A DNA stretch of 64,000 nucleotides from an uncultured Bacilli bacterium (GCA_934183185.1 CAKPSO010000002.1:3050-67049), one strand, 5' to 3'. Counted from the stretch's first letter, positions 1 through 32,200 are shown. Made by a program: numbers and translations. The notes: generated by a model not told the origin, from the sequence alone.

Positions 1-1283
1 ATTCCTGATAAGCTAATACCATTTAGAATAGCTGCCATAGCGTGTTCACGAACTCCAAACCAGATGTTTTTACCGGTTCTATTAGTTGGGGAGAAGTCAC
101 CCATATCTTCTAAATAAGTTTTGGTTGAAGAACTAAGATCAGCACTACCGCCCATTATAAATGGGTAAGTTTTAGCATATTGATTTAGTATTTTACCATT
201 AGTTACTCTTAGGGCTTCATTTTCAGTAGCTATAATAGAATAATCGATATTATTATCTAGAATAATACTATTCTTCTGAGTTAAATTTTCTAAATCAGCT
301 TTATCTTCTGGCGTAAGTCTTGCTTCTGTTTCTAATGATGCCTTATAGTAAGGCTCTATTCTCTCATGAATTAATCCTTGCATTAAGTCTATAGTATCTT
401 GAGAGACAGTAAATGGTATATCGCGTAGTCCTAACTGAGTTTTAATAGTCTTTATTTCTTCTTTATCTAAAACCATACCATGAGCAAGGTTAGTTCCTTG
501 ATTTTTAGAATATCTTCCTATTACAGTTTGAACTATAATTAGCGTTGGTTTATCGATTGATGTTTTAGCTTTTTCAATAGCATGATCTAGGCTAGTTAAA
601 TCTTCTCCATCCTGTACTACTAGAACATTCCAATTCATTCCTTGAAATCTAGTCATAACGTTTTCTGTAAAAGTCATATTAATATTTCCATCTAATGTGA
701 CTTGGTTACAATCATATATAGCTATTAAATGACTTAGTTTTAAAGTACCAGCTAAAGATGCAGCTTCATATGATACTCCTTCCATTAAATCACCATCACT
801 ACATAATGTATATGTATAATAGTTTATGAATGGTAGGTTCTTTTTCAAATAATAGTTACGTAAGTATTCTTCAGATATAGCCATACCTACTGCTGATGCA
901 AAGCCTTGCCCTAATGGTCCAGTAGTCATATCAACCCCAGGCGTTACTCCATATTCAGGATGTCCAGGTGTTTTAGAATCTATTTTTCTGAATTGTTTCA
1001 AATCTTCTAAAGTTAAATCGTAACCTGATATAAATAAAGTTGCATAGAGTAAAGCAGAAGCATGACCGCATGATAACACGAAATGATCCCTATTATACCA
1101 TTTAGGATCCTCAGGATTTATTTTTAAGTGTTTTGCGTAAAGTGTATATAGTATTGGTGCAGCATCTAATACTATTCCTGAATGACCACTACCAGCTTCA
1201 TTAATCATGTCAAGTGCTAAGCAACGTATTGTATCAACTATTTTTTTCTCTTCTGTAGACTTATCTTTATCCCAAAATAACAT
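1..1283 (-). CDS. tkt: Transketolase, N-terminal portion (C-terminus lies beyond window start)
   Basis: Minus-strand translation from ATG at 1283 (RBS AGGAGTG) gives SGHSG TPP-binding motif and RDHFVLSCGHAS/LLYATLFISGY transketolase signatures; ORF runs off the window edge. Confidence 0.85.
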   Translation of the reverse strand, partial: MLFWDKDKSTEEKKIVDTIRCLALDMINEAGSGHSGIVLDAAPILYTLYAKHLKINPEDPKWYNRDHFVLSCGHASALLYATLFISGYDLTLEDLKQFRKIDSKTPGHPEYGVTPGVDMTTGPLGQGFASAVGMAISEEYLRNYYLKKNLPFINYYTYTLCSDGDLMEGVSYEAASLAGTLKLSHLIAIYDCNQVTLDGNINMTFTENVMTRFQGMNWNVLVVQDGEDLTSLDHAIEKAKTSIDKPTLIIVQTVIGRYSKNQGTNLAHGMVLDKEEIKTIKTQLGLRDIPFTVSQDTIDLMQGLIHERIEPYYKASLETEARLTPEDKADLENLTQKNSIILDNNIDYSIIATENEALRVTNGKILNQYAKTYPFIMGGSADLSSSTKTYLEDMGDFSPTNRTGKNIWFGVREHAMAAILNGISLSG

Positions 1284-1337
1284 ATATTTTCACTCCTATC
1301 ATTATTAGTATAACATAATTCATAGAAAAAGACGATT

Positions 1338-2741
1338 TTACTCGTCTTCGAATAATTTTTCTACATCATTACGTACTTTTTCATCTGATTTATTATCAAC
1401 AAAATCATCTGGTCTAAACTCACGTGTAGCTTCTAAATCACCGGGCATAATACTATTTGATTTTTTAGTAGTACTTTCTTCTTTAACATCATTATCAGTT
1501 TGGTTAATGGTTTCTTTTTCTTTTTCTTTTTCTTTATCTTTATCTATATTTTTATTTTTCTTTTTACTTTTCTTATCTTTCTTTTTAGTTGATGTAATTA
1601 TATAGAAGTATATACCTATACCACCAATAGCTAATAGAATAAGGCAACCAATAGTTACAAAAACATATCTTAAGGTATGATTAGAACCACTATCTTCATC
1701 TGATGTTCCTACTCCCGTAGCATTACTAGAAGTTGGTGATGTATATTTACTAGAATGTCCTGTTTCTACTCTTTCATCTTCAGCTAATCTAGTAACTACT
1801 ATTTTATATGTCCTTTGATTACCAGAGGTATCAGTAACTGTAACTGTAACTGTATTTTTACCAACTATTAAGCCAGTTGCTCCAGTAATTTTTACGGTAG
1901 CATTACTATCTTCAGTAGCAGCTTGAATAGTAACATCCGTTGCTTCAAATGGAATATCTGCTGTATATTCTAGAATATTAGTATTAAATGTTTCGTTTAG
2001 GGCATACCCTTTTATCTTAAGTGATTTTAAGTTTAGGTTTGATTCTTCTTTTTTTACTGTAAATTTATAAGTCTTATTAGTTTTACCATCTTCAGCTGTT
2101 ACTACTACTTTAACGATAGTACCGGTATGAATTGATGAATTATTAGCTATTTTAGTTCCAGCTTTTTTATCAGATAATTCAATATTGAATTCTAGTTCAG
2201 TAACATCTTTAGCTACAGTTACTATATATTCTTCATCTGATTGTTTAAAAGCTTTATCTAAAGTACCATTTTTGATACTTAGATTTTTTATAGTTGCATC
2301 ATTTGATTTAACTGTTTCTTGTTTTGCTGCTACTTCTATTTCACAGGTAGCTTTTTTAGCTTGATCATCTTTTGCAGAAGCTGTAATAGTTGCATTTCCA
2401 GCTTTTATAGCTGTTACTTTACCATTTTCATCAACAGTAGCTACGCTGGTATTACTACTAGACCAAGTGATTTTGGTATTAGTTGCGTTATCTGGTGTAA
2501 CTGTAGCTTCTAACTGCTTTGTATCACCTACTACCATGTTAATTTTACTTAATGATAGATTAACACCAGTTACTGCTATAGTTGGTTCAACTGATGGTGT
2601 TGGAGTTGGTGATACTACTGGATTAGTAGTTGGCGTTGGAGTTGGTTCTCCCTCCTCAGCAAAAGCCATAGTTGGCATTAATAATAGCATTGTGGTTATA
2701 ATTAATAACTTATTTCGTTTCTTCATATTAAATATAGACAT
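1338..2741 (-). CDS. Membrane-anchored surface protein: signal peptide, TP-rich linker, Big_2 Ig-like domain, two cadherin-like beta-sandwich repeats, C-terminal TM helix and K/E-rich cytoplasmic tail
   Basis: N-terminal hydrophobic signal (LLLMPTMAFA), PTPTPT linker, Big_2-like segment (VTGVNLS...ATVTP), TM segment LRYVFVTIGCLILLAIGGIGIYFYII followed by KKKDKKSKKK and EKEKEKEKE tail. Confidence 0.55.
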   Translation of the reverse strand: MSIFNMKKRNKLLIITTMLLLMPTMAFAEEGEPTPTPTTNPVVSPTPTPSVEPTIAVTGVNLSLSKINMVVGDTKQLEATVTPDNATNTKITWSSSNTSVATVDENGKVTAIKAGNATITASAKDDQAKKATCEIEVAAKQETVKSNDATIKNLSIKNGTLDKAFKQSDEEYIVTVAKDVTELEFNIELSDKKAGTKIANNSSIHTGTIVKVVVTAEDGKTNKTYKFTVKKEESNLNLKSLKIKGYALNETFNTNILEYTADIPFEATDVTIQAATEDSNATVKITGATGLIVGKNTVTVTVTDTSGNQRTYKIVVTRLAEDERVETGHSSKYTSPTSSNATGVGTSDEDSGSNHTLRYVFVTIGCLILLAIGGIGIYFYIITSTKKKDKKSKKKNKNIDKDKEKEKEKETINQTDNDVKEESTTKKSNSIMPGDLEATREFRPDDFVDNKSDEKVRNDVEKLFEDE

Positions 2742-2789
2742 TTTACTACCCTCTCTTTACTATATCAATGAGTATATCATATTTAATAG

Positions 2790-2818
2790 AAAAAGGAAAG
2801 CTATTTTGTGTGCTTTCC
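2790..2818 (-). terminator. Rho-independent terminator immediately after htpG stop
   Basis: Minus-strand hairpin GGAAAGC-ACACAAAAUA-GCUUUCC followed by UUUUU. Confidence 0.6.
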
Positions 2819-4693
2819 TTATACTAAATGGTCACAAATTAAATTACTAAGTTCAGTTGGATTATCTATAGGTAATCCCTCTATTAAACGGGCTTGAGCA
2901 TATAATATTTTACTATATTCTTTTACTGCTTCTGGATTTTCTTGGTAAAGATTTTTTAGTTTTTCAAAAATTGGATGTTTTTCATTTATTTCTAGAATGG
3001 TAGTTGCTTTTACATTTTCATCTGTAGGCATAGCATTAATAACTTTCTCCATTTCAATAGAAACATTACCATCACTAACTAGACATACTGGGTGATTTTT
3101 TAGTTGGTTAGTAATACGTACATCTTTAACATCTTTTATTGCTTCTTTCATTAATTCTAGCATATCATGATTGTCTTTATTTATTTTTTCAAGATCTTTC
3201 TTTTCTTCTTCTGAAGCAAGATCTAGTTTATTAGTAGAAGCATTAATAAATTTTTTATTTTCATATTCTCCAAGTGTCTGTAATACAAATTCATCTACGT
3301 AATCAGTACAATATAGAACATCATAGTTCTTATCCTTTAACTGTTCTACTTGCGGAAGTAAGGCTATTTTGTTTATATTTTCACCACAAGCATAGTAAAT
3401 GGTAGTTTGATCTTTAGACATATTATCTATATATTCTTTTAATGTTATTAGTTTTTCTTGTTTACCAGAATGGAATAAAAGTAAATCTTTTAGACTATCT
3501 TTATGAATACCAAATTCATTGTAGATACCAAATTTTAATTGCATACCGAAGGCTTTATAAAATTTTTCATAGTCCTCACGATTATCTTTTAACATTATTT
3601 CTAGTTCTTTTTTAATTTTTGATTCAATATTTTTAGCTATTAGCTGTAATTTATGATCTTTTTGAAGCATTTCCCTAGAAATGTTAAGTGATAAGTCTGG
3701 GCTATCTACTACTCCCTTTACAAAACTAAAGTAATCTGGCAATAAGTCACTACATTTTTCCATGATTAGAACTCCATTTGAGTATAATTGAAGTCCTTTT
3801 TCAAATTCTTTACTGTAATAATCAAGGGAAGCATGAGATGGAATATATAGTAATGAATTAAATGAGACAAGTCCTTCTAGTGAGTTATGTATTACTCTTA
3901 GCGGTTTTTCATAATCAAAGAATTTATCACTATAGAAAGTATCATACTCATCTTCAGATATTTTATTCTTATCACGTTTCCAAATAGGGATTAATGTATT
4001 AATAGTCTTTATTTCTTTAACAGTTTCGTATTCATCACTGTTTTCTTTTTTCTTTCTAGATTCTACTTCCATTTGAATAGGATATGTGATGTAATCGGAA
4101 TACTTTTTAATTAAATGTTCGATAGTATATGTGTCTAGGTATTGATCATAGTCTTCATCATCTGTATTTTCCTTGATAGTTAAAATTATTTTAGTACCAT
4201 TATCTTTTTTATCTGTTTTTTCAATGGTATAGCCATCTATACCGGTAGATGTCCATTTATACGCCTCATCGCTAGTAAATGATTTAGTGATTACTTCTAC
4301 TTTGTTGCTTACCATAAATGCTGAATAGAAGCCAACTCCAAATTGTCCAATTATATCAATGTTTTCCTTAGCTTCGTTTTCTTCTTTGAATGATAGAGAG
4401 CCACTTTTTGCAATAGTACCAAGATTGTCTTCAAGCTCTTCTTTAGTCATACCACAACCAGCATCAGTAATAGTTAGAGTTCTTTTATCTTTATTAATTT
4501 CAATAAAAATTTTAAAATCGTCTAAGTTTACTTTAACATCTTGATTAGTTAATGATAAGTAATGAAGTTTATCCATTGCATCACTGGCGTTAGAAATTAT
4601 TTCTCTTAGAAATATTTCTTTATTTGTATAGATTGAATTAATCATTAAATCCATTAATTTTTTTGATTCTGCTTTAAATTGGTGTTTTGCCAT
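2819..4693 (-). CDS. htpG: Molecular chaperone HtpG (Hsp90)
   Basis: 624 aa; HATPase_c motifs (NASDAMDKL, ITDAGCGMT, IGQFGVGFYS) and Hsp90 middle/C-terminal domains. Confidence 0.95.
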   Translation of the reverse strand: MAKHQFKAESKKLMDLMINSIYTNKEIFLREIISNASDAMDKLHYLSLTNQDVKVNLDDFKIFIEINKDKRTLTITDAGCGMTKEELEDNLGTIAKSGSLSFKEENEAKENIDIIGQFGVGFYSAFMVSNKVEVITKSFTSDEAYKWTSTGIDGYTIEKTDKKDNGTKIILTIKENTDDEDYDQYLDTYTIEHLIKKYSDYITYPIQMEVESRKKKENSDEYETVKEIKTINTLIPIWKRDKNKISEDEYDTFYSDKFFDYEKPLRVIHNSLEGLVSFNSLLYIPSHASLDYYSKEFEKGLQLYSNGVLIMEKCSDLLPDYFSFVKGVVDSPDLSLNISREMLQKDHKLQLIAKNIESKIKKELEIMLKDNREDYEKFYKAFGMQLKFGIYNEFGIHKDSLKDLLLFHSGKQEKLITLKEYIDNMSKDQTTIYYACGENINKIALLPQVEQLKDKNYDVLYCTDYVDEFVLQTLGEYENKKFINASTNKLDLASEEEKKDLEKINKDNHDMLELMKEAIKDVKDVRITNQLKNHPVCLVSDGNVSIEMEKVINAMPTDENVKATTILEINEKHPIFEKLKNLYQENPEAVKEYSKILYAQARLIEGLPIDNPTELSNLICDHLV

Positions 4694-4726
4694 AATAATC
4701 GTCTCCTTTACATATTGGCATAAAGT

Positions 4727-4755
4727 AATATAACTCTATTTTTGGCAGTTGTCAA
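4727..4755 (-). promoter_or_regulatory. Sigma-A type promoter for htpG (-35 TTGACA, 17-nt spacer, -10 TATATT)
   Basis: Minus-strand TTGACA at 4750-4755 and TATATT at 4727-4732, about 35 nt upstream of htpG ATG. Confidence 0.5.
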
Positions 4756-4768
4756 TAATGAGTGCTAA
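4742..4768 (-). promoter_or_regulatory. CIRCE-like inverted repeat (candidate HrcA operator) overlapping the htpG promoter
   Basis: Minus strand reads TTAGCACTC-N9-AACTGCCAA: perfect CIRCE left half, 9-nt spacer, right half 6/9. Confidence 0.45.
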
Positions 4769-4773
4769 TTTTT

Positions 4774-5034
4774 TTAGCTATTATAAAGAAAATTTGATTT
4801 AATGTATTCTAATAAATCTTTAAATTTTATTTTCTTTTCATAACCATTTATAAATATATCATCACATTCATCAAACATTAAGTAATCTATTTCATTAATA
4901 GTTATTATATGAGGTTTAACATAAGCAAACTTACATATCATATCAACTTTCTTTTTTAATTTCTCACTTATATTTAATTCTTTAGTTTCTATTGTTAACA
5001 CATAATCACTCTCACTTTTTTTCTTAAATAACAA
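4774..5034 (-). CDS. Small hypothetical protein, paralog of ORF 9523..9804; doubtful TTG start without RBS (possibly a remnant)
   Basis: Shares ICKF/ICEF-centred similarity with the 93-aa ORF next to tRNA-Leu; start codon lies in the T-run of an upstream terminator. Confidence 0.3.
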   Translation of the reverse strand: MLFKKKSESDYVLTIETKELNISEKLKKKVDMICKFAYVKPHIITINEIDYLMFDECDDIFINGYEKKIKFKDLLEYIKSNFLYNS

Positions 5035-15344: not shown

Positions 15345-15590
15345 TCCTCCTTACAATATAAAAAGGTAGTCCATCTAAGGACGAGTTTCCCCGTGGTGCC
15401 ACCTTTATTTTTTCTTAATTCTTTAACGCAGACATACGATTACCATAAATGAAAAGTGTCTTCATTAGTTATTACTAAGTATTTCCATCAACCATACTCT
15501 TTCTATAAGAGATATACTAATTACTCTTCTTTTCAGGTATAAGTTAATTTTACTATAATCATTGGGATTTTTCAAGCTGATTTTCATTTA
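15345..15590 (-). promoter_or_regulatory. T-box riboswitch leader (His specifier CAC) controlling the 152-aa ORF-hisS-aspS operon
   Basis: Minus strand contains T-box sequence AAAGGUGGCACCACGGGG, a terminator plus U-run, stem I AGAGU region and a specifier-like loop GACACUU. Confidence 0.65.
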
Positions 15591-21044: not shown

Positions 21045-22070
21045 TTAATTAAAAATACTATTTTGATATTCTATTTGCAAGTGTTCATAAGCTAAAGATG
21101 TTACCATTCTACCACGTGGTGTTCGTTTTAGAAAGCCTTGTTGTAGAAGATATGGCTCATATACATCTTCTATAGTAGTAACTTCTTCACCAATAGCTGA
21201 AGCAACTGATTCAATACCTACTGGGCCACCGTTAAATTTATTAATAATTGCTAATAATAATTGGTGGTCAGTATCGTCTAATCCCTTATCATCAATCCTT
21301 AGACGTTGTAGTGCTTTTTTAGTAATATCAATGTCTATTATACCATTTCCTTCAACTAATGCAAAGTCCCTAACACGTTTAAATAAACGGTTAGCTATTC
21401 TTGGCGTACCTCTACTTCTTCTAGCAAGTTCTCGGCTTGCATCGTCTTCAATTGGTACATTTAGTACTTTAGAAGTTCTCTTGACGATATCTATTAATTC
21501 TTCTTCTGTGTAATATTGAAGTTTAGCAATGATTCCAAAACGGTCTCTAAGTGGTGATGTTAAATCTCCAGCTCTAGTTGTAGCTCCCACTAGAGTAAAT
21601 GGTGGTAGGTTAATTCTAATATTTCTACTATTTCCTTCACCACCAATAATTATATCTAATACATAGTCTTCCATTGCTGGATATAATATTTCTTCAATGT
21701 ATGATGGCATACGATGTATTTCGTCTATAAATAGGACATCTCCCGGCTCCAATGAAGATAAAATTGCAGCTAAATCTCCCGATTTTTCAATGCTCGGCCC
21801 ACTAGCTGTTTTTATATTTACACCTAATTCATTAGCAATGATATTAGCTAGGGTAGTTTTTCCTAAACCTGGTGGCCCATAGAGTAAAACATGATCTAGT
21901 GGTTCAGATCTCATTTTGGCTGCTTCAATATAGACTTTAATGTTTTCTTTTACTTCTTTTTGCCCAATATAGTCAGCTAAATACTCCGGTCTTATATTCT
22001 GTTCTACACTATCTTCTTCTAGTTCCTCGTTTGTTATTATTCTATCATCCATCTTATTTTCTCCTTTCAC
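21045..22070 (-). CDS. ruvB: Holliday junction ATP-dependent DNA helicase RuvB
   Basis: Walker [18 protein letters not shown], sensor motifs and RuvB C-terminal winged helix. Confidence 0.95.
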
Positions 22071-22824
22071 CGATTTCTTTTTTTGAAATTATATATGTCA
22101 ACAATTCTTTTACACTATCAGGAAATTTTTCTTCCCAATCTCTGTAAATAATTCCTAAATTAATGTATTTTTCTACTAAATCTAGTGATTCTATTGATAA
22201 ATGTCTTTTTACTCCTATAATCATACTAATATCATCATATTTCACAGTTCTTAGAAAGCCAAAGCGTTCAACTAAGTTGATTACAGAATATTTATTAAAA
22301 TCTACTTTCTGCCACAAATCATTATCTTTAATCAATAAATTATTCAAAATAGTATTAGCTGTAATTTCATGATTTCCGAATTCTTCATCACTTTTGGTTA
22401 TCATGGCTATACCATTTGGATCGATTAACCAACTCTTTAGCAGTTTACCAGTAGGTGATTCGATATTAAGTTCACTATTACTGCTAATAACTAAATCACA
22501 ATAGTAACCAGCGTTATTTTTATCAATAGCATAATTAGATACTTCTTCATATGTAAGGTTACCATCATCAGACTCTATTATAAATAGTTTATTTTTAACT
22601 GCTTTTAAGTAATTCTTATCTTTCATAAATGGATTTATAAATACGTATTTTAGTTTAGTCATAACATAATCAAAATACGGATCAAAGTATGAATAATCTT
22701 TACTAAATTTAATAAAATCATCATAGTTATCTATATTTTCACAAACTATTCTGCAAAAATCATTTACCTCATCATAATCCATAAAAACTGTTTGATTATT
22801 TGGTAACATGAAACCTACTTTCAT
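22054..22824 (-). CDS. Hypothetical protein (256 aa) inserted between ruvA and ruvB
   Basis: Intact ORF; stop overlaps annotated ruvB start; no motifs recognised. Confidence 0.4.
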
Positions 22825-24279: not shown

Positions 24280-24642
24280 TTATTTCATAACAGGCGTTTT
24301 TGATAAAAACAGGCATTTATTGTTACCATTATTAGTATTTATTGATTCGATAAAGTTACTTCTAATACTTTCTAATTCAGTCATGATATTGGGGTCATCG
24401 TACCATGAAATTATCTCTTTTGATACTAAATCAAATATCTTTATACTTTCTTTCTCAAAGTCTTTTTCAAGTAATATATCCCTAATATATTCTAGAGGAT
24501 TATTTTTATCTTCAAGATAATCATTTAATATTTTTCTTTCATCAATGGTTAATAAATCTTTACCATCTAAATAGTCATAAAGTACTTTTTCTAGATCATA
24601 TTTAATAACTAATACTCTTAAATCTAATGTTTCTCTATTCAA
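24280..24642 (-). CDS. Hypothetical protein (120 aa)
   Basis: Intact ORF downstream of bacteriocin operon terminator. Confidence 0.35.
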   Translation of the reverse strand: MNRETLDLRVLVIKYDLEKVLYDYLDGKDLLTIDERKILNDYLEDKNNPLEYIRDILLEKDFEKESIKIFDLVSKEIISWYDDPNIMTELESIRSNFIESINTNNGNNKCLFLSKTPVMK

Positions 24643-24785
24643 AATATCCTCCTACTAATACTGCATGAGTTTATAATAACAGGATATTTTTACTATGTCA
24701 AAGGAAACTATAAAAATTAATTTTTAATTTTTCTTATATGAAAAGAGAAAATATTTCTATCTTCTCTAACATACAATTCGAAAAA

Positions 24786-24818
24786 CTAAACGGAAGAAGG
24801 TACCTAAGTACCTTCCTA
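24786..24818 (-). terminator. Rho-independent terminator ending the bacteriocin operon
   Basis: Minus strand GGAAGGUAC-UUAG-GUACCUUCUUCC then GUUUAGUUUUUCG. Confidence 0.55.
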
Positions 24819-24929
24819 GCCATAAAATGGTTAAAATACTATAGTTTAATACTACACATATAAGGGGGCATACAACTATTAAAGCAATATTTTTTAATAG
24901 ATTATTATTTAGATTTAGTTTTTTATTCA

Positions 24930-25097
24930 TTATAGTGAACACATTCTATTAGATCCTATTCTGCGAAGAGCTGATCCAAAATTTCTTCCTAAATCAGCAA
25001 CTGTTTTAAACATATTAGAAAAAGCATTTATAATTACGCCGGTAACGTTAAATCCTCCTTCAATGTTCATTAATTCTGTTTTTGATAACTGTGACAT
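24930..25097 (-). CDS. Class II bacteriocin precursor peptide 2 with double-glycine leader (not in ORF track)
   Basis: RBS GGAGGA then MSQLSKTELMNIEGG / FNVTGVIINAFSNMFKTVADLGRNFGSALRRIGSNRMCSL; leader matches the LSxxELxxIxGG consensus exactly. Confidence 0.75.
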   Translation of the reverse strand: MSQLSKTELMNIEGGFNVTGVIINAFSNMFKTVADLGRNFGSALRRIGSNRMCSL

Positions 25098-25109
25098 ATT
25101 TTATTCCTC

Positions 25110-25250
25110 CTATCTACATTTTATTGGTCTAGCTATACCATCAATAACGCCTACTATAAATACTAAGGCATTCACGATACCAAAAGCTGCCCAAAAAGAA
25201 AGCCCACCACCTTGGGTATTTTTTAATTCATTTTGTGTTAATTCTTGCAT
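25110..25250 (-). CDS. Class II bacteriocin precursor peptide 1 with double-glycine leader (not in ORF track)
   Basis: RBS GGAGGA then MQELTQNELKNTQGG / GLSFWAAFGIVNALVFIVGVIDGIARPIKCR; small-xxx-small motifs in mature peptide. Confidence 0.75.
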   Translation of the reverse strand: MQELTQNELKNTQGGGLSFWAAFGIVNALVFIVGVIDGIARPIKCR

Positions 25251-25251
25251 A

Positions 25252-25683
25252 TTACTTCCTCCAAACTTTTTCTTTTAAATAATCCCATAGAGTCATTTTA
25301 TTCTGTTCTAATGATACTTCAATCAGAGGTATAGGAGTAGATAGTTTAGACGTTTCTATTAGAACCGGTAGATAAACTTTATTATTTTCCATTATACTTT
25401 CTCTCTCTATTTTCTTTATATCATATGTATATTTCTTTTTATTGTATAGAAATTTATTACTATTAAGCCATAAATCTATATCTTGGTATGGAACTATTAC
25501 TTGATATAAATTATTCTCTTTTATCTGTATTATAAACTTTTTCTGACCTACATAAGATAATTTAAAAAATATTAAAATAAATAATATTATAAAAATCAAT
25601 AAACTACGATGAAGTACATATAAAGGTAATTTGAAATAATCTCGTTCATAATTACCACTAGTAAGACTATTAATTATTTTCAT
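25252..25683 (-). CDS. Small membrane protein between exporter and bacteriocin genes (candidate immunity protein or truncated HlyD/LcnD-type accessory)
   Basis: 143 aa, one N-terminal TM helix (LLIFIILFILIFF); far shorter than the ~450-aa accessory proteins. Confidence 0.4.
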   Translation of the reverse strand: MKIINSLTSGNYERDYFKLPLYVLHRSLLIFIILFILIFFKLSYVGQKKFIIQIKENNLYQVIVPYQDIDLWLNSNKFLYNKKKYTYDIKKIERESIMENNKVYLPVLIETSKLSTPIPLIEVSLEQNKMTLWDYLKEKVWRK

Positions 25684-27751
25684 AGCAGATACCTTCTCTC
25701 ATTTCTATTTTTCGATTAAATAGATCATTATTGTGGTAACGGTGTGAAATAATTATAAAAGTCTTTTCAGGATACTTAGTAAATATATTGGTAAGTATTT
25801 CTCTTTCTCTATCAATATCTATTTCATTTAGACTCTCATCAAATATATACAAATCAGCATTCTTATAAATAGCTCTGGCAAGAATTATTCTTTGCCTTTC
25901 TCCACCACTTATATTAAAGCCATTTTCTTCTAATAGCATATTATATTTTAATGGATTGTTTTCTACTATTTCATCTACTTTGCATAAGGCGCATATATCT
26001 AAAAATGATTCATATTCTTCTTCGCTATCTAAATGAATATTTTGGTATACTGAGTCTTGAAATAAGATTTCATTCTGAGATAAGTAACATACCTGTCTTT
26101 TTAGAGTATCATTATCATACTCAGATAATGGATATTTATCTAGAGTTATACTTCCAGTAACTTGGGGTATTATTCCAGCTAATATTTTAGCTAGAGTACT
26201 TTTACCACTACCGCTTTTACCATAAATTAATACACGGTCACGAGCTTTTATTTCTAACGAAATTCCATTTAGAATTTTTCTTTTAGGACTATATTGATAA
26301 CTTAAATCCTTTACCATTATATTTCCAATAATTTTCTCTTTCTTCATTTTGATATTCTGAGCTTCATCTTGTGGTATTTGAAATAAGTCATCTACTCTTT
26401 CAATGGAAAGTTTGGCATCCCTCCACTTATATCCTATATCAAAAAGATTTCTAATTGGTTCAAAAAAATAAACTAATAATGTATAGAAAGTGAGAAGTTG
26501 TCCTAATGATATATTATCTTTTAGGACCATGAAAGAGCCTACAATTATAACCAAGAGAATGCCTATTTCTTCGATTAAATCACTTAGTGAACGTAAGTAG
26601 GTAAAAATAGTTGAAGTTCTGTAACTTACTTGTAAATACTCTTTTAATTTGGTAATGAAATTATGTTCTACATACTTTTCTATACCAAATCCACGTACTG
26701 TTTCCATTCCTGATATTGTTTCAACTAAATAAGAATTAGTAATATTAGCTTTTTCTTTTAATACTTTCATTCTTTTAGAAAACAATTGCCAAGATATTAG
26801 TATTATAATAACTAATATTAAAGTAATTACTATTAATATGCTTGATAATTGTATGCTTAGTTTAAGTAATACTATAATAACTGTTATTAAAAGAAAAGTA
26901 TCAACAAAGCAGGTAACAAAAACTTTTCCTAGAAAATCTTTTATATTTTCTAAATCCTGAACTCTAGCTACTATTTCTCCTGTAGAATGATTTTTATAAT
27001 ATAAATATGGGAGGGATAATAATTTGTGGTAAACATCTGTAAGAAGACTATTACTAATTACGTGATTGAAATGATGTAGTAATAAGTTTCTCCATAATTC
27101 AAGCCATTTTTTTAATAATATTACGAACATAAATGAAATTCCACCAAAATAAAGATTCGTAATGGATGAATATTGGATCACATAATCTAGTAATACTTGG
27201 AATTCAAATGATGAGACTATACTTAAAAAAGTAGTAAATGCTGATATTAAAGCTAAGCATATTAAATTCTTTCTATACTTATAAATTATCTTCTTGATTT
27301 TTGGCATTATTAATGATGAGTCTGTGTAATTAGGTATTTTCTTAACGGGGTATAAACATAAATATAAATCAGAAGATATTTTATTGAAGTCAAGAAAACT
27401 TATTTTTTTAATAGACGAGGCTGGATCTGCTATTAAAATCTTTTTTCTTTTATAGTCTATTTTGTAGATAACTATAAAGTGTTGGTAACTATTATTTATA
27501 ACTACGTGGGCTATACATGGTAAATCATTTTGATCCATATCTTCAATTTTACCTTTTAGTCCTTTAGTAGAAAAATTAAACTTTTTTGCAGCTTCCAATA
27601 AAGAATAGGCATCTACTCCATCTTTGGTTGTATGAGTAATATCTCTTAAATATTCTTTTGAAGCTCCACCACCATAATACTTCATTATCATAAGTAAGGA
27701 TGCTACCCCACAATCTTTAATTCCATCTTGAGATACAAATGGATATTTCAT
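25670..27751 (-). CDS. Bacteriocin ABC transporter with N-terminal C39 double-glycine peptidase domain
   Basis: C39 catalytic Cys (QDGIKDCGVASLLMI) and His (QHFIVIY), six TM helices, Walker A GKSGSGKST, signature LSGGERQR; probable start MKYPF at 27751. Confidence 0.9.
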   Translation of the reverse strand: MKYPFVSQDGIKDCGVASLLMIMKYYGGGASKEYLRDITHTTKDGVDAYSLLEAAKKFNFSTKGLKGKIEDMDQNDLPCIAHVVINNSYQHFIVIYKIDYKRKKILIADPASSIKKISFLDFNKISSDLYLCLYPVKKIPNYTDSSLIMPKIKKIIYKYRKNLICLALISAFTTFLSIVSSFEFQVLLDYVIQYSSITNLYFGGISFMFVILLKKWLELWRNLLLHHFNHVISNSLLTDVYHKLLSLPYLYYKNHSTGEIVARVQDLENIKDFLGKVFVTCFVDTFLLITVIIVLLKLSIQLSSILIVITLILVIIILISWQLFSKRMKVLKEKANITNSYLVETISGMETVRGFGIEKYVEHNFITKLKEYLQVSYRTSTIFTYLRSLSDLIEEIGILLVIIVGSFMVLKDNISLGQLLTFYTLLVYFFEPIRNLFDIGYKWRDAKLSIERVDDLFQIPQDEAQNIKMKKEKIIGNIMVKDLSYQYSPKRKILNGISLEIKARDRVLIYGKSGSGKSTLAKILAGIIPQVTGSITLDKYPLSEYDNDTLKRQVCYLSQNEILFQDSVYQNIHLDSEEEYESFLDICALCKVDEIVENNPLKYNMLLEENGFNISGGERQRIILARAIYKNADLYIFDESLNEIDIDREREILTNIFTKYPEKTFIIISHRYHNNDLFNRKIEMREGICYENN

Positions 27752-27850
27752 AATTATTATCACCTCCTGATAATAATTATTATAAGAAAGTTGGAAGATG
27801 ACTGCATTTTTTTTCAAAAAAGTTAAAAAAAATGAAAAAAACAGTATTTT

Positions 27851-30235
27851 TCAACTGTTTCTTACGTAAGAATTGGTTTTTTTCGTTACTTCATCAATTA
27901 TTTTATTAAATATGATCATTACTTCTTCATCACTTAAAGTACGATTTTGATCACTAAATGTTAAGTTGAAAGCAATAGAGCGTTCGTCAGAAGCAACGTT
28001 TTCGCCTTCATATACATCAAATATAGTTATGTTTGTTAGTAAATGCCCAGCTGCTTTTTTGATAACTGTCATTAACAGTTCTGCTGTTGTACCCTTTTTA
28101 ACTACGAAAGCAATGTCTTTAGAAATAGATGGGTATTTAGATAGTTCCTTATATTGCATTTTCTTTACTCTAAATGAGAATAGTTTATCTAAATTTATTT
28201 CCATAACGTAAATAGAATCTTTAGTAATACTTGGGTGTATTTTACCTATTATTCCTATTTTAGTACCATTTAAGATAATAGATGCACTTTGTCCTGGATG
28301 AAGTTCTTTTGGAAGATCAGTAACAGTTAGGGCGTAACGATTTTGATATCCCAAGTATTCTAGTAATTCTTCTAAGATACCCTTTATATAATAGAAGTCT
28401 ACGGTTATTTTTTCTAATCCTACTGAATAATTACCTGTCATTAGTACAGCTAGTTTATTTTCTTCATAGTACTTTCCTTCTTTTTTATAGAAACCTTTAC
28501 CCACCTCATAAAGAAAAATATCTTTTTGGCCTCTAGCTTTATTATAATTATATATATCCATAAGTGATGGAATTAAGCTGTAGCGTAAGCTGTTTCTATC
28601 ATTACTCATTGGATCTAGGACTTTAACCATTTCTACATCATCAGTAGTATATTTGCCTGCTTCTTTATCTGATATAAGAGCATAGCTTAGGGTTTCGTTT
28701 AAGCCAAGCATAGCCATCTTATTGCGTACTATACGTAGATTTTTATTTACACTACCTGGTTTAACTGGTAAAATCATTGCTTTTCCTACTATTTTATCTA
28801 TTCCATATATTCTACCTACTTCTTCTATTAAGTCTTCTTTAATAGAAATATCAATTCTTCTAGTAGGAACTGTTACAGTAATTACATCACTATTAGTAGC
28901 TGTTTCAAATCCTAAGCGTTTAAAAATTGATAGTATTTCGTCTTTAGATATTTCAATACCTAAGACACTATTAATTTTTTCTGTAGTTATAGATATTTTC
29001 TTATCTTGAATATTTAATTTATTATATTCAACCATACCACCAACTATTTCGGCATCGGCATATTTTTCCAATAAATGACAGCTTCTTAGCATAGCCATAT
29101 AAGTTCTTTTAGGATCTAATCCTTTCTCAAAACGATTACTTGCTTCACTTCTTAATACTTTTTTAGAGGTTTTACGAATACTTGTGGCATCAAAAATAGC
29201 TGATTCAATTATTATGTTTTTAGTATCCATTTCTATTTCTGTAGTTAATCCTCCCATAACTCCAGCAAGGCCAACTGCACCATCCTTATTAGCAATTACG
29301 ATATCACTATTAGATAGTGTTCTTAATTCATTATCTAGAGTTACTAGTTCTTCGTTATCTGATGCCATTCTTACGGTTAGACTATTTCCTAACCTATCAC
29401 TATCATAATAATGTAGAGGTTGTCCTGTTTCTAGCATAACATAGTTAGAAATATCAACAATATTATTAATTGGACGAATACCTGATGCTATCAATCTATT
29501 CTTTATGAAATCTGGGCTTTCTTTGATAGTTACATTTTTTACTTGTTTAGCTAAGAATAATTGGCAATTAGAGGTTTCAATATTTAATTTGAAAGTATCA
29601 TTTATATTATCGTTATTTTCTGTAAAAGTTAAATCAATGTCTTTAACTTCTTTATCATATAGGGCTCCTATTTCATAGGCCATTCCTAGGATACTTAGTA
29701 AGTCTCCTCTATTTGAAGTAAGTTCAAAGTCAATTACTTCATCATCTAATCCTAATAATTTTATTGGATCTTCTCCAACTACAGCATCACTAGGTAATTC
29801 ATGTATACCAGCAACATCTTTTTCCTTTAAAAATTTATGTTCAAGACCAAGTTCAGCTATGGAACAAAGCATACCATTTGATTCTTCACCACGAATTGTT
29901 CCCTTTTTGATGACTCCTCCTGGTAATACAGCCCCATCTAAGGCAACTATTACTTTTAATCCAGTTCTAACATTTGGAGCTCCGCAAACTATCTGTAGTA
30001 CTTCTTTTCCAACATTTACTTTGCATATATGTAAGTGATCACTATTAGGATGATTGATACATTCTAATACTTCTCCAATCACTAAATTAGATACTGGTAA
30101 TAATGGGCCACATGAGTCGTATTCATTACCAATACTAGTCATATCTTCAGCTAATGTTTTAGTATCAACAGGAATATCTACATATTCTTTAACAAAATTT
30201 CTACTTAATTTCATTTTCTTCATCCTTTCTGTCAA
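27851..30235 (-). CDS. pheT: Phenylalanine--tRNA ligase beta subunit
   Basis: 794 aa with tRNA-binding, B3/B4, B5 and FDX-ACB domain order. Confidence 0.95.
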   Translation of the reverse strand: MTERMKKMKLSRNFVKEYVDIPVDTKTLAEDMTSIGNEYDSCGPLLPVSNLVIGEVLECINHPNSDHLHICKVNVGKEVLQIVCGAPNVRTGLKVIVALDGAVLPGGVIKKGTIRGEESNGMLCSIAELGLEHKFLKEKDVAGIHELPSDAVVGEDPIKLLGLDDEVIDFELTSNRGDLLSILGMAYEIGALYDKEVKDIDLTFTENNDNINDTFKLNIETSNCQLFLAKQVKNVTIKESPDFIKNRLIASGIRPINNIVDISNYVMLETGQPLHYYDSDRLGNSLTVRMASDNEELVTLDNELRTLSNSDIVIANKDGAVGLAGVMGGLTTEIEMDTKNIIIESAIFDATSIRKTSKKVLRSEASNRFEKGLDPKRTYMAMLRSCHLLEKYADAEIVGGMVEYNKLNIQDKKISITTEKINSVLGIEISKDEILSIFKRLGFETATNSDVITVTVPTRRIDISIKEDLIEEVGRIYGIDKIVGKAMILPVKPGSVNKNLRIVRNKMAMLGLNETLSYALISDKEAGKYTTDDVEMVKVLDPMSNDRNSLRYSLIPSLMDIYNYNKARGQKDIFLYEVGKGFYKKEGKYYEENKLAVLMTGNYSVGLEKITVDFYYIKGILEELLEYLGYQNRYALTVTDLPKELHPGQSASIILNGTKIGIIGKIHPSITKDSIYVMEINLDKLFSFRVKKMQYKELSKYPSISKDIAFVVKKGTTAELLMTVIKKAAGHLLTNITIFDVYEGENVASDERSIAFNLTFSDQNRTLSDEEVMIIFNKIIDEVTKKTNSYVRNS

Positions 30236-31954: not shown

Positions 31955-32200
31955 TTACCTCCAAAAAAGCGACCACTCGTATAAGGACGAATGATCGCGG
32001 TACCACCTTAATTCATAGTATAAACTATGCAACTTTATTTTTTTAACGCAAAATTACGTCCAATATTAATTGGAAACTCATAAGGTGAATTCATAAGAAT
32101 CTATTTATTTGTTTGCACCAACCACAAATTCTCTGATAATAGATTATCTTATTACTACTTCTTATTCAACGTTTTTATGTCAATGATTATAACTCTAATC
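31955..32200 (-). promoter_or_regulatory. T-box riboswitch leader (Phe specifier UUC) for esterase-pheS-pheT
   Basis: Minus strand AAGGUGGUACCGCGAUC T-box sequence, terminator GCGAUCA...UGGUCGC plus UUUUUU, AGAGA stem I element, GAAUUCACC specifier-like segment. Confidence 0.7.

Follow-up and report, generated by a model that had tools for sequence, protein, structure and literature searches.

Two-peptide bacteriocins of class IIb are described as sharing adjacent peptide genes in one operon, double-glycine (GG) leaders of 15–30 residues and a dedicated ATP-binding cassette (ABC) transporter, together with an immunity gene within that operon, an accessory protein and a GxxxG motif in all known members; the role of the accessory protein is called unclear, and the protein is not listed as universal for the class (PMC2850506). 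Short immunity proteins with a single transmembrane domain (TMD) are also known, including CbnZ (42 residues, N-in/C-out), BrcI (53 residues), EnkIaz (52 residues) and AbpIM (55 residues), the genes of which lie directly after the peptide genes (PMC6957408). Here we analysed a 64-kb stretch of DNA from an uncultured Bacilli bacterium (GCA_934183185.1 CAKPSO010000002.1:3050-67049; 64,000 nucleotides, hereafter the window) and describe a cassette on its minus strand that encodes, in order, a C39-peptidase ABC exporter, an accessory protein, two small GG-leader peptides (pep1 and pep2) and a third small open reading frame (ORF3). We consider it probable, from the sequence features set out below, that the product of the cassette is a two-peptide bacteriocin of a class IIb-like kind, accompanied by an immunity protein of the mimic type.

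The two peptide genes are arranged as in class IIb systems. They are adjacent, with 12 nucleotides between them on the same strand, and are bracketed by one promoter region and one terminator; GGAGGA precedes each of them, as an earlier note on this DNA had stated when it proposed two tandem small GG-leader ORFs. The first, pep1 (25110..25250, minus strand), encodes a 46-amino-acid precursor with a 15-residue GG leader (MQELTQNELKNTQGG) and a hydrophobic mature peptide of 31 residues (GLSFWAAFGIVNALVFIVGVIDGIARPIKCR; 3304 Da, isoelectric point (pI) 9.5). The second, pep2 (24930..25097, minus strand), encodes a 55-amino-acid precursor in which a 15-residue leader (MSQLSKTELMNIEGG) that fits LSxxELxxIxGG exactly is followed by a cationic mature peptide of 40 residues (FNVTGVIINAFSNMFKTVADLGRNFGSALRRIGSNRMCSL; 4379 Da, pI 11.5). 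Both leaders are within the length range of the class, both peptides carry GxxxG (GVIDG in pep1 and GRNFG in pep2), and a protein with C39, ABC_membrane and ABC_tran domains, for which leader cleavage is predicted, provides the dedicated transporter. The class IIb architecture proposed in the earlier note, two co-transcribed GG-leader peptides plus a C39 exporter, is therefore present in its sequence-level features, from which activity is predicted. Apart from one spurious antisense ORF, no further ORF with a GG leader came up when the entire window was scanned.

All three small ORFs are protein-coding and under purifying selection. The coding test was a Nei–Gojobori comparison with L009, a divergent relative of the same layout in which the accessory protein is 53% identical and the three small genes have 46, 55 and 54 codons, as in the window. 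The ratio of non-synonymous to synonymous substitution (dN/dS) was 0.23 for pep1 and 0.35 for pep2; for ORF3, which has the same length and position in L009, the proportions of synonymous and non-synonymous differences were 0.82 and 0.30, with synonymous sites saturated. Substitutions in the three genes are concentrated at third codon positions; in the two off-frames, stop codons abound and the ratios are 0.7–3.8. Conservation in orthologous loci, which the earlier note had treated as a touchstone, was found for pep1, pep2 and ORF3 alike, at the protein level in around 80–95 independent loci, which is far more than chance would give.

Related loci were retrieved via the pep1 motif FxIGVIDGxV, which gave at least 92 species-level genomes, with 80 loci kept. 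The pep1 sequences share the motif F-x-[IV]-G-[VI]-I-D-G-x-[VA]-R-P-x-x-C, in which F31, G34, I36, D37, G38, P42 and C45 are invariant. The family signature of pep2 is a GG leader followed by IxGxLINA...G[RQ]xxGSxIRRI...C; G37 and G41 (the glycines of GxxxG) and C53 are invariant and the RR pair is nearly so. A GG-leader motif is present in 79 of 84 pep1 homologues and 81 of 82 pep2 homologues, and GxxxG in 79/79 pep1 and 78/81 pep2 sequences. Exactly one mature cysteine was found in 70 of the 79 pep1 sequences, 1–2 residues from the C terminus, and in 80 of the 81 pep2 sequences, 0–4 residues from the C terminus. The median net charge is +1 for the pep1 family and +3 for the pep2 family.

An exhaustive HMMER search with pep2 returned 78 full-length representatives at 50% identity, and a profile search returned more than 200 clusters, nearly all of which are metagenomic; the few named relatives are titled ‘MAG: bacteriocin’ or ‘hypothetical protein [Bacilli bacterium]’. 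Exact copies of pep1 and pep2 are annotated as genes on approximately 70 contigs each (human-gut metagenomes and one metagenome-assembled genome (MAG) at NCBI). Public annotation does include the peptide genes that the earlier note found absent from the ORF track, and only ORF3 is consistently overlooked in the window species.

One strain (L013) carries a mobile element (L013 ~1–4960) with a large serine recombinase (565 amino acids) and phage-like cargo (a CI-like repressor). The element sits inside the 3′ end of pep1, with a junction near 4950 between the codons for ...IDG and FVRPLSCNN (by comparison with L012 4845–4988), and cuts off pep2 and ORF3 from the remaining cassette; the element apparently uses the conserved pep1 end as an attachment site.

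Comparison with curated families gave a mixed answer for the mature peptides, for which the earlier note had named Bacteriocin_IIc and lactococcin G as the families of interest. The window peptides score 13.7–14.5 bits with PF10439 Bacteriocin_IIc (cutoff of 27.1) and 14.4–16.7 bits with the lactococcin G alpha and beta models (NF038035 and NF038034; cutoff of 37); for pep2 these matches cover the leader only, and for pep1 they extend into the mature part. The class IIb model TIGR03949, by contrast, is matched by 28 of 31 pep1-family members at E ≤ 0.01 (best E = 3.5e-7), with the window pep1 itself at 18.3 bits, below the 21.5-bit cutoff. The relationship appears to be remote and specific to pep1: the window pep2 reaches 17.1 bits with the same model, also below the cutoff and through its leader alone, and mature pep2 is covered by no Pfam or NCBIfam model. 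The pep2 precursor does pass the generic model of 15-residue GG leaders, TIGR01847 bacteriocin_sig (16.9 bits; cutoff of 15.7).

ORF3 (24766..24930, minus strand) encodes a leaderless protein of 54 amino acids, in which a basic N terminus is followed by one transmembrane (TM) helix and, towards the C terminus, by a LGRYLGTFFRLVFRIVC segment. Its start codon shares nucleotides with the stop codon of pep2 (TAATG). Homologues are present at the same position in 79 of 95 loci. The start of ORF3 overlaps the 3′ end of pep2 by 1–16 nucleotides in almost all loci and usually lacks a Shine–Dalgarno (SD) sequence of its own, which suggests translational coupling to pep2. ORF3 is annotated as a 53-amino-acid gene in L012 and was never called in the window species. 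The earlier note had doubted ORF3, as it seemed to run through the operon terminator, and had placed the end of the operon at a hairpin at 24786–24818. Neither point survived: ORF3 is a conserved coding gene, and the operon terminator lies directly after it, at 24767–24741.

This terminator (24741..24767, minus strand) is a 10-bp stem, AGAGAAGATA-GAAA-TATTTTCTCT, followed by TTT, and begins within the ORF3 stop codon. In the window, the 61 nucleotides 3′ of the stop fold at −12.3 kcal/mol (z-score of −2.8); an equivalent hairpin and T-run follows ORF3 in 82% of 68 loci (z < −1.5; mean z of −2.56), and in L009 the stem sequence has changed with its pairing retained. The hairpin inside ORF3 (24794..24817, minus strand; 10-bp stem) spans the codons for GRYLGTFF and has a poor T-tail. 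It is specific to the window species, with a z-score of −3.5 in the window versus −0.6 in L009, in which seven synonymous changes destroy the pairing while preserving GRYLGTFFRL; across the 68 loci, the last 60 nucleotides inside ORF3 are unstructured (mean z of −0.15; 13% below −1.5). We rejected this hairpin as the operon terminator because it has no proper T-run, is species-specific and loses its pairing in L009.

Profile comparison shows ORF3 to be a homologue of mature pep2, and we regard it as a tethered paralogue. Alignment of mature pep2 with ORF3 using hhalign gave a probability of 95% (E = 3.6e-8) over the C-terminal 28 residues; a second comparison, with other alignments and with the pep2 leaders kept, gave 92% (E = 5.1e-7) over 44 columns, or approximately the whole mature peptide, and aligned the GxxxG glycines, the arginine that follows them and the C-terminal cysteine. 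The control comparisons of pep1 with ORF3 and of pep1 with pep2 gave E values of 0.4–0.8. GxxxG is present in 72/72 ORF3 sequences and a cysteine occurs within the last four residues in 52/72. The ORF3 helix is hydrophobic at the place at which the pep2 helix is amphipathic, and ORF3 matched no curated family. By its position, coupling, single predicted TMD and size class, ORF3 is a candidate immunity protein, which would have an N-in/C-out topology.

The exporter (25670..27751, minus strand; 693 amino acids) combines a C39 peptidase, a transmembrane region and an ATPase (PF03412, PF00664 and PF00005). It can be aligned over its full length with PCAT1 (4RY2; E = 1.4e-99) and also with ComA (E = 1.2e-78); in PCAT1, identical residues are found opposite its catalytic Cys (DCG), His (HFIVIY) and Asp (ADP). 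Its scores are below the cutoffs of the TIGR01193 bacteriocin_ABC model (388.9 versus 523.85 bits) and of the Mycoplasma-type model NF045998 (328 versus 500 bits). By its architecture, the protein is predicted to be a peptidase-containing ABC transporter (PCAT) of a distinct, divergent subfamily. In L009 (1–745), the ABC gene is interrupted in its 3′ part, giving pieces of 133 and 103 amino acids, which could be a sequencing error, at a contig coverage of 2×, or a pseudogene.

The gene for the accessory protein (25252..25683, minus strand; 143 amino acids) overlaps the stop codon of the ABC gene by 14 nucleotides. The protein has an N-terminal TM helix (residues ~12–41), a beta-rich extracytoplasmic domain and a C-terminal helix. 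In the predicted model, which was built from a shallow alignment of 10 sequences and has a predicted local distance difference test (pLDDT) score of 67, the beta-barrel part alone aligns to structures of membrane-fusion proteins (MFPs). Full members of the MFP family combine a lipoyl domain, an alpha-helical hairpin and a beta-barrel; the model here shows a TM helix and a single beta domain, at a third of the size. The view in the earlier note that this protein takes the place of HlyD/LcnD accordingly finds support in the predicted fold, which resembles an MFP beta-barrel, and none in Pfam, in which there is no HlyD match. With moderate confidence, the model suggests a one-domain ‘mini-MFP’ that replaces the LcnD/HlyD accessory.

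A direct homologue search with this protein found one non-trivial relative, and a profile search limited by its word index found 12 matches. An ORF of 128–155 amino acids occupies the accessory slot in related loci, and 71 of 78 such ORFs could be linked to the window protein by jackhmmer. The window protein scores 19.9 bits (E = 6.3e-4; cutoff of 35) with the MAG1140 family (NF045999) over nearly the full model length, and 14 of 37 accessory homologues match that family at full length (best E = 8.6e-7), with no competing family. The accessory protein is thus a remote homologue of the MAG1140 family rather than a member of it.

We propose that the cell synthesises precursors of pep1 and pep2 that carry 15-residue GG leaders, and that the PCAT, assisted by the miniature membrane-fusion-like accessory with its TM anchor and one beta-barrel, cuts after GG and exports the 31-residue hydrophobic and 40-residue cationic peptides. 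Outside the cell, the two would pair through their conserved GxxxG motifs, and the single conserved cysteine near each C terminus may provide a covalent link between them or a redox switch. As ORF3 is homologous to pep2, we propose protection by mimicry: ORF3, a leaderless paralogue anchored in the producer membrane, would occupy pep1, or the receptor site for pep2, such that an active complex would not assemble in the producing cell. What we infer here comprises antimicrobial activity, pairing of the peptides, any disulfide, the topology of ORF3 and the mechanism of immunity.

More tentatively, we suggest an extended version of this proposal, which we hold to be doubtful as a whole. It envisages an ancient, vertically inherited cassette of small-genome, Mollicutes-related gut Bacilli, in which the protective ORF3 arose as a duplicated toxin peptide that pairs with pep1 via GxxxG, and possibly via cysteine, and in which the active species is a cysteine-linked or redox-gated heterodimer of pep1 and pep2 that leaves the cell with the help of a one-domain mini-MFP. 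In its boldest form, the three peptides would make up a housekeeping membrane complex and not a weapon.

The genomes that carry the cassette are all MAGs of uncultured organisms, with the titles Bacilli, Tenericutes, Mollicutes or Mycoplasmatota bacterium, and come from human, rabbit, ruminant, rodent and digester samples; they include one closed chromosome of 1.31 Mb. Eleven loci (L048, L055, L060, L061, L070, L071, L079, L080, L085, L087 and L090) bear the titles Muribaculaceae or Ignavibacteriales, and these MAGs are probably mislabelled or contaminated bins. The order of the cassette is held in nearly all of 96 loci, with a single copy of each peptide gene, and pep1 is paired with pep2 in 95 loci. 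In the window, pheST flanks the cassette on one side and a 120-amino-acid gene, then rpsU, yqeY and ruvA, on the other. Across loci the upstream neighbour is variable: of 70 loci, 18 have an RsmD-like gene there, 1 has PheT and 51 have other genes.

Several observations weigh against the interpretation of the cassette as a bacteriocin locus, and most of them concern its inheritance. The rpsU gene lies within 1.6 kb downstream of the cassette in 48 of 72 informative loci, and the cassette is present in 8/8 informative contigs that carry the exact S21 of the window species. Pairwise identities of the ABC protein track those of YqeY (Spearman correlation of 0.63) about as those of S21 do (0.61). 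With mean pairwise identities of 0.57 for pep1 and 0.49 for pep2 versus 0.56 for YqeY, the peptides evolve no faster than their housekeeping neighbours. The G+C content of the cassette is ordinary, without compositional anomaly, and a search of viral contigs gave no true match to it. Because the loci were retrieved via pep1, the finding of complete cassettes is in part a product of the retrieval, which does not apply to synteny and co-divergence. Other points concern the components. The canonical LcnD/HlyD accessory of ~450 amino acids is absent, with only the 143-amino-acid protein in its place, and the barrels of Gar1, RimM and translation-factor domain II score similarly to MFPs against the accessory model with its pLDDT of 67. 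The window peptides are below every curated bacteriocin cutoff, with the exception of pep2 on TIGR01847. Finally, each peptide has one conserved cysteine near its C terminus, a difference from class IIb that, to our knowledge, has not been described for that class.

The cassette is inherited vertically, in a core-like manner, across around 90 species, which is unusual for bacteriocin loci. In this respect the earlier reading was incomplete, as the locus is no sporadic bacteriocin island, and it also missed the homology of ORF3 to pep2. A phage- or island-borne cassette was rejected on the basis of the lack of a true viral-contig match, the ordinary GC content and the fixed chromosomal position.

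Core-like conservation keeps non-antagonistic functions in play, and the alternative that survives best is of this kind. On this account, pep1 and pep2, trimmed and exported by the PCAT, insert from the outside into the membrane of the cell itself and form a small complex with ORF3 through GxxxG and cysteine, with a role in envelope homeostasis, ion leak, stress response or interaction with the host or surfaces, and the bacteriocin-like parts are borrowed machinery. It is favoured by the vertical inheritance and fixed synteny by rpsU–yqeY across dozens of small-genome species, by strains without presence/absence polymorphism, by housekeeping-like substitution rates and by a gene stoichiometry of one-to-one-to-one. 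That ORF3 is a homologue of pep2 and not an unrelated immunity fold also fits, as do the remote exporter and mini-accessory families, which are named after Mycoplasma genes and have no bacteriocin role in the literature searched. However, every sequence-level hallmark of class IIb is present, pep1 relatives match the class IIb family TIGR03949, and the serine-recombinase element of L013 disrupts pep1 in a strain without obvious loss of the organism. Species-wide inheritance also has parallels among bacteriocin-type loci, such as pneumococcal blp and cib, and we know of no precedent for PCAT-exported peptides that serve as the cell’s own structural membrane subunits. We regard a non-antagonistic role as unlikely on these grounds, although it is the alternative to be taken most seriously.

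A GG-leader pheromone or quorum-sensing system, in which one or both exported peptides would be population signals as in ComC or BlpC, had been left open by the earlier note. The GG leaders and PCAT are common to ComC and BlpC systems, and there are weak matches to the BlpC and ComC models; these matches, however, are confined to the leader, and the ~5 kb to each side of the cassette contains neither a histidine kinase nor a response regulator, in the window as in related loci. At 31 and 40 amino acids, the mature peptides are long; they are hydrophobic or amphipathic and carry GxxxG, and two peptides with a membrane paralogue are unlike a pheromone layout. A signalling role has therefore lost ground and seems improbable to us.

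The possibility that ORF3 is not a gene, such that the operon would end after pep2 at the 24794–24817 hairpin with no immunity gene in cis, is very improbable: the hairpin is stable in the window species, in which gene callers omit ORF3 and ORF3 has no strong SD sequence of its own, but divergent L009 keeps the 54 amino acids, the TAATG overlap and GRYLGTFFRL with that hairpin abolished, and the homologues in other loci, the gene call in L012, the family-wide terminator after an unstructured ORF3 interior and the lack of a proper T-run all speak for a gene.

The cassette is best explained as a single minus-strand transcription unit of ~3 kb, which runs between a −10 box at 27784 and the terminator at 24741. 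Upstream, a hairpin (27821..27860, minus strand), AAACAGT-TGAAAAAT-ACTGTTT as read from the sequence, overlaps the pheT stop codon and is followed by a long T-run; it would be the terminator of the upstream pheST operon and so presumably marks the 5′ boundary of the cassette transcription unit. The candidate cassette promoter has a perfect −10 hexamer, TATAAT (27779..27784, minus strand), and an AT-rich region upstream without a good −35 hexamer; it is absent from the output of a consensus promoter scan because the −35 is poor. The SD sequence of the ABC gene (AGGAGGTG; 27761..27768, minus strand) lies 7 nucleotides upstream of the ATG at 27751. This ATG is most likely the start of the 693-amino-acid protein, given the SD sequence, the TATAAT at 27784–27779 and the use of the same start by public gene callers. 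The end coordinate of 27817 in the earlier note corresponds to a TTG start and a 715-amino-acid form, which finds no support and which we rejected in favour of ATG 27751.

The window has a G+C content of 28.5%, and every gene in it is on the minus strand. Between the cassette and rpsU, a gene for an acidic protein of 120 amino acids (24280–24642, minus strand) is found only in the closest relatives (11 loci); its promoter (24701–24673) is near-consensus, TTGACA-17-TATTAT with TG. Some strains of the window species carry an IS605-family TnpB/OrfB gene (375 amino acids) between the ORF3 terminator and this gene (L005 6546–7673, L006 6546–7673, L099 3206–4333 and L102 3207–4334); the insertion site corresponds to window positions ~24650–24740, and the window strain lacks the insertion. 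Two T-box leaders are present in the window, at 31980–32178 and 15374–15540 (both minus strand). The first is upstream of pheST, which places the gene upstream of the cassette under tRNA-sensing control, and a terminator separates pheST from the cassette. A 256-amino-acid ORF without a Pfam match (22054–22824, minus strand) is wedged between ruvA and ruvB in all strains examined.

If the cassette does encode a bacteriocin, a large uncultured clade from human and animal guts, of at least 92 species-level genomes, would join the known producers of two-peptide bacteriocins with two peptide families whose mature parts both lack a curated model, and a tethered paralogue of a toxin peptide would represent an immunity principle that is undescribed as far as we found. 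A minimal PCAT accessory of ~140 amino acids could clarify what the enigmatic accessories of the LcnD/ComB type contribute, and it ties the cassette to a pair of uncharacterised genes in Mycoplasma. Given its vertical, core-like inheritance, one may also ask whether cassettes of this kind serve as weapons at all in symbionts with reduced genomes. The mature peptides, at 31 and 40 amino acids, are short enough for direct synthesis and assay.

Among described systems, the cassette is closest in layout to lactococcin G, plantaricin EF and JK and carnobacteriocin XY, with which it has in common two adjacent peptide genes, here with 15-residue GG leaders. As in lactococcin G, a C39-ABC exporter and an accessory gene are within the operon, and, as in class IIb in general, a small membrane-protein gene lies directly downstream and the mature peptides are cationic or hydrophobic, of 30–40 residues, with GxxxG. 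Past the leader, by contrast, the mature sequences show no relation to lactococcin G, enterocin 1071 or Bacteriocin_IIc, and the scores are below the cutoffs. The match of pep1 to the lactobin A/cerein 7B family (TIGR03949) spans the leader and the Gly-rich hydrophobic N-terminal mature part (model positions 2–34 of 45), and the C-terminal signature IGVIDGxVRPLKC of pep1 lies beyond it. By inference from the absence of a modifying enzyme in the cassette and from an unsuitable cysteine spacing (C+1 to C+3), we set aside AgrD-like thiolactone formation and CaaX-like processing of the C-terminal cysteine.

The exporter has in common with PCAT1 of Clostridium thermocellum (4RY2) and with ComA-type PCATs its full-length architecture and the C39 catalytic Cys, His and Asp, and differs from these proteins in scoring below the curated cutoffs and in being paired with a mini-accessory. 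Relative to adaptors of the HlyD, MacA and AcrA type and to LcnD and ComB, the accessory protein resembles the beta-barrel domain alone. A counterpart of the pair may be found in the Mycoplasma-type families Mbov_0121 (NF045998) and MAG1140 (NF045999), a C39 ABC exporter and a protein of ~126–145 amino acids with a TM helix and a beta domain, as here; judging from their names and adjacent accession numbers, the two are presumably genomic neighbours in Mycoplasma. The window proteins, however, all score below the cutoffs of these families, and no named Mycoplasma is among the 80 kept pep1-motif loci; the open-access literature searched holds no published function for the Mycoplasma pair.

ORF3 is like CbnZ, BrcI, EnkIaz and AbpIM in its size, single predicted TMD, basic N terminus and gene position right after the peptide genes, and unlike them in its homology to the neighbouring peptide, pep2. 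We know of no description of such homology for these four proteins, nor of a sequence relation between them and ORF3. The cassette departs from class IIb in an accessory protein of ~140 rather than ~450 amino acids and in an immunity candidate that is a paralogue of one of the peptides, and it differs from plasmid- or island-borne class IIb loci in its vertical inheritance and a position that is fixed across ~90 species. The open-access literature searched contains no description of this system or its features, which is weak evidence of absence. The export logic and the peptide design are already known, and are those of class IIb. Going by the curated libraries and the literature searched, the families of pep2, ORF3 and the accessory protein are new, as are the conserved lone cysteines, a toxin-peptide paralogue as immunity candidate and lineage-wide vertical inheritance of such a cassette in uncultured, small-genome gut Bacilli.

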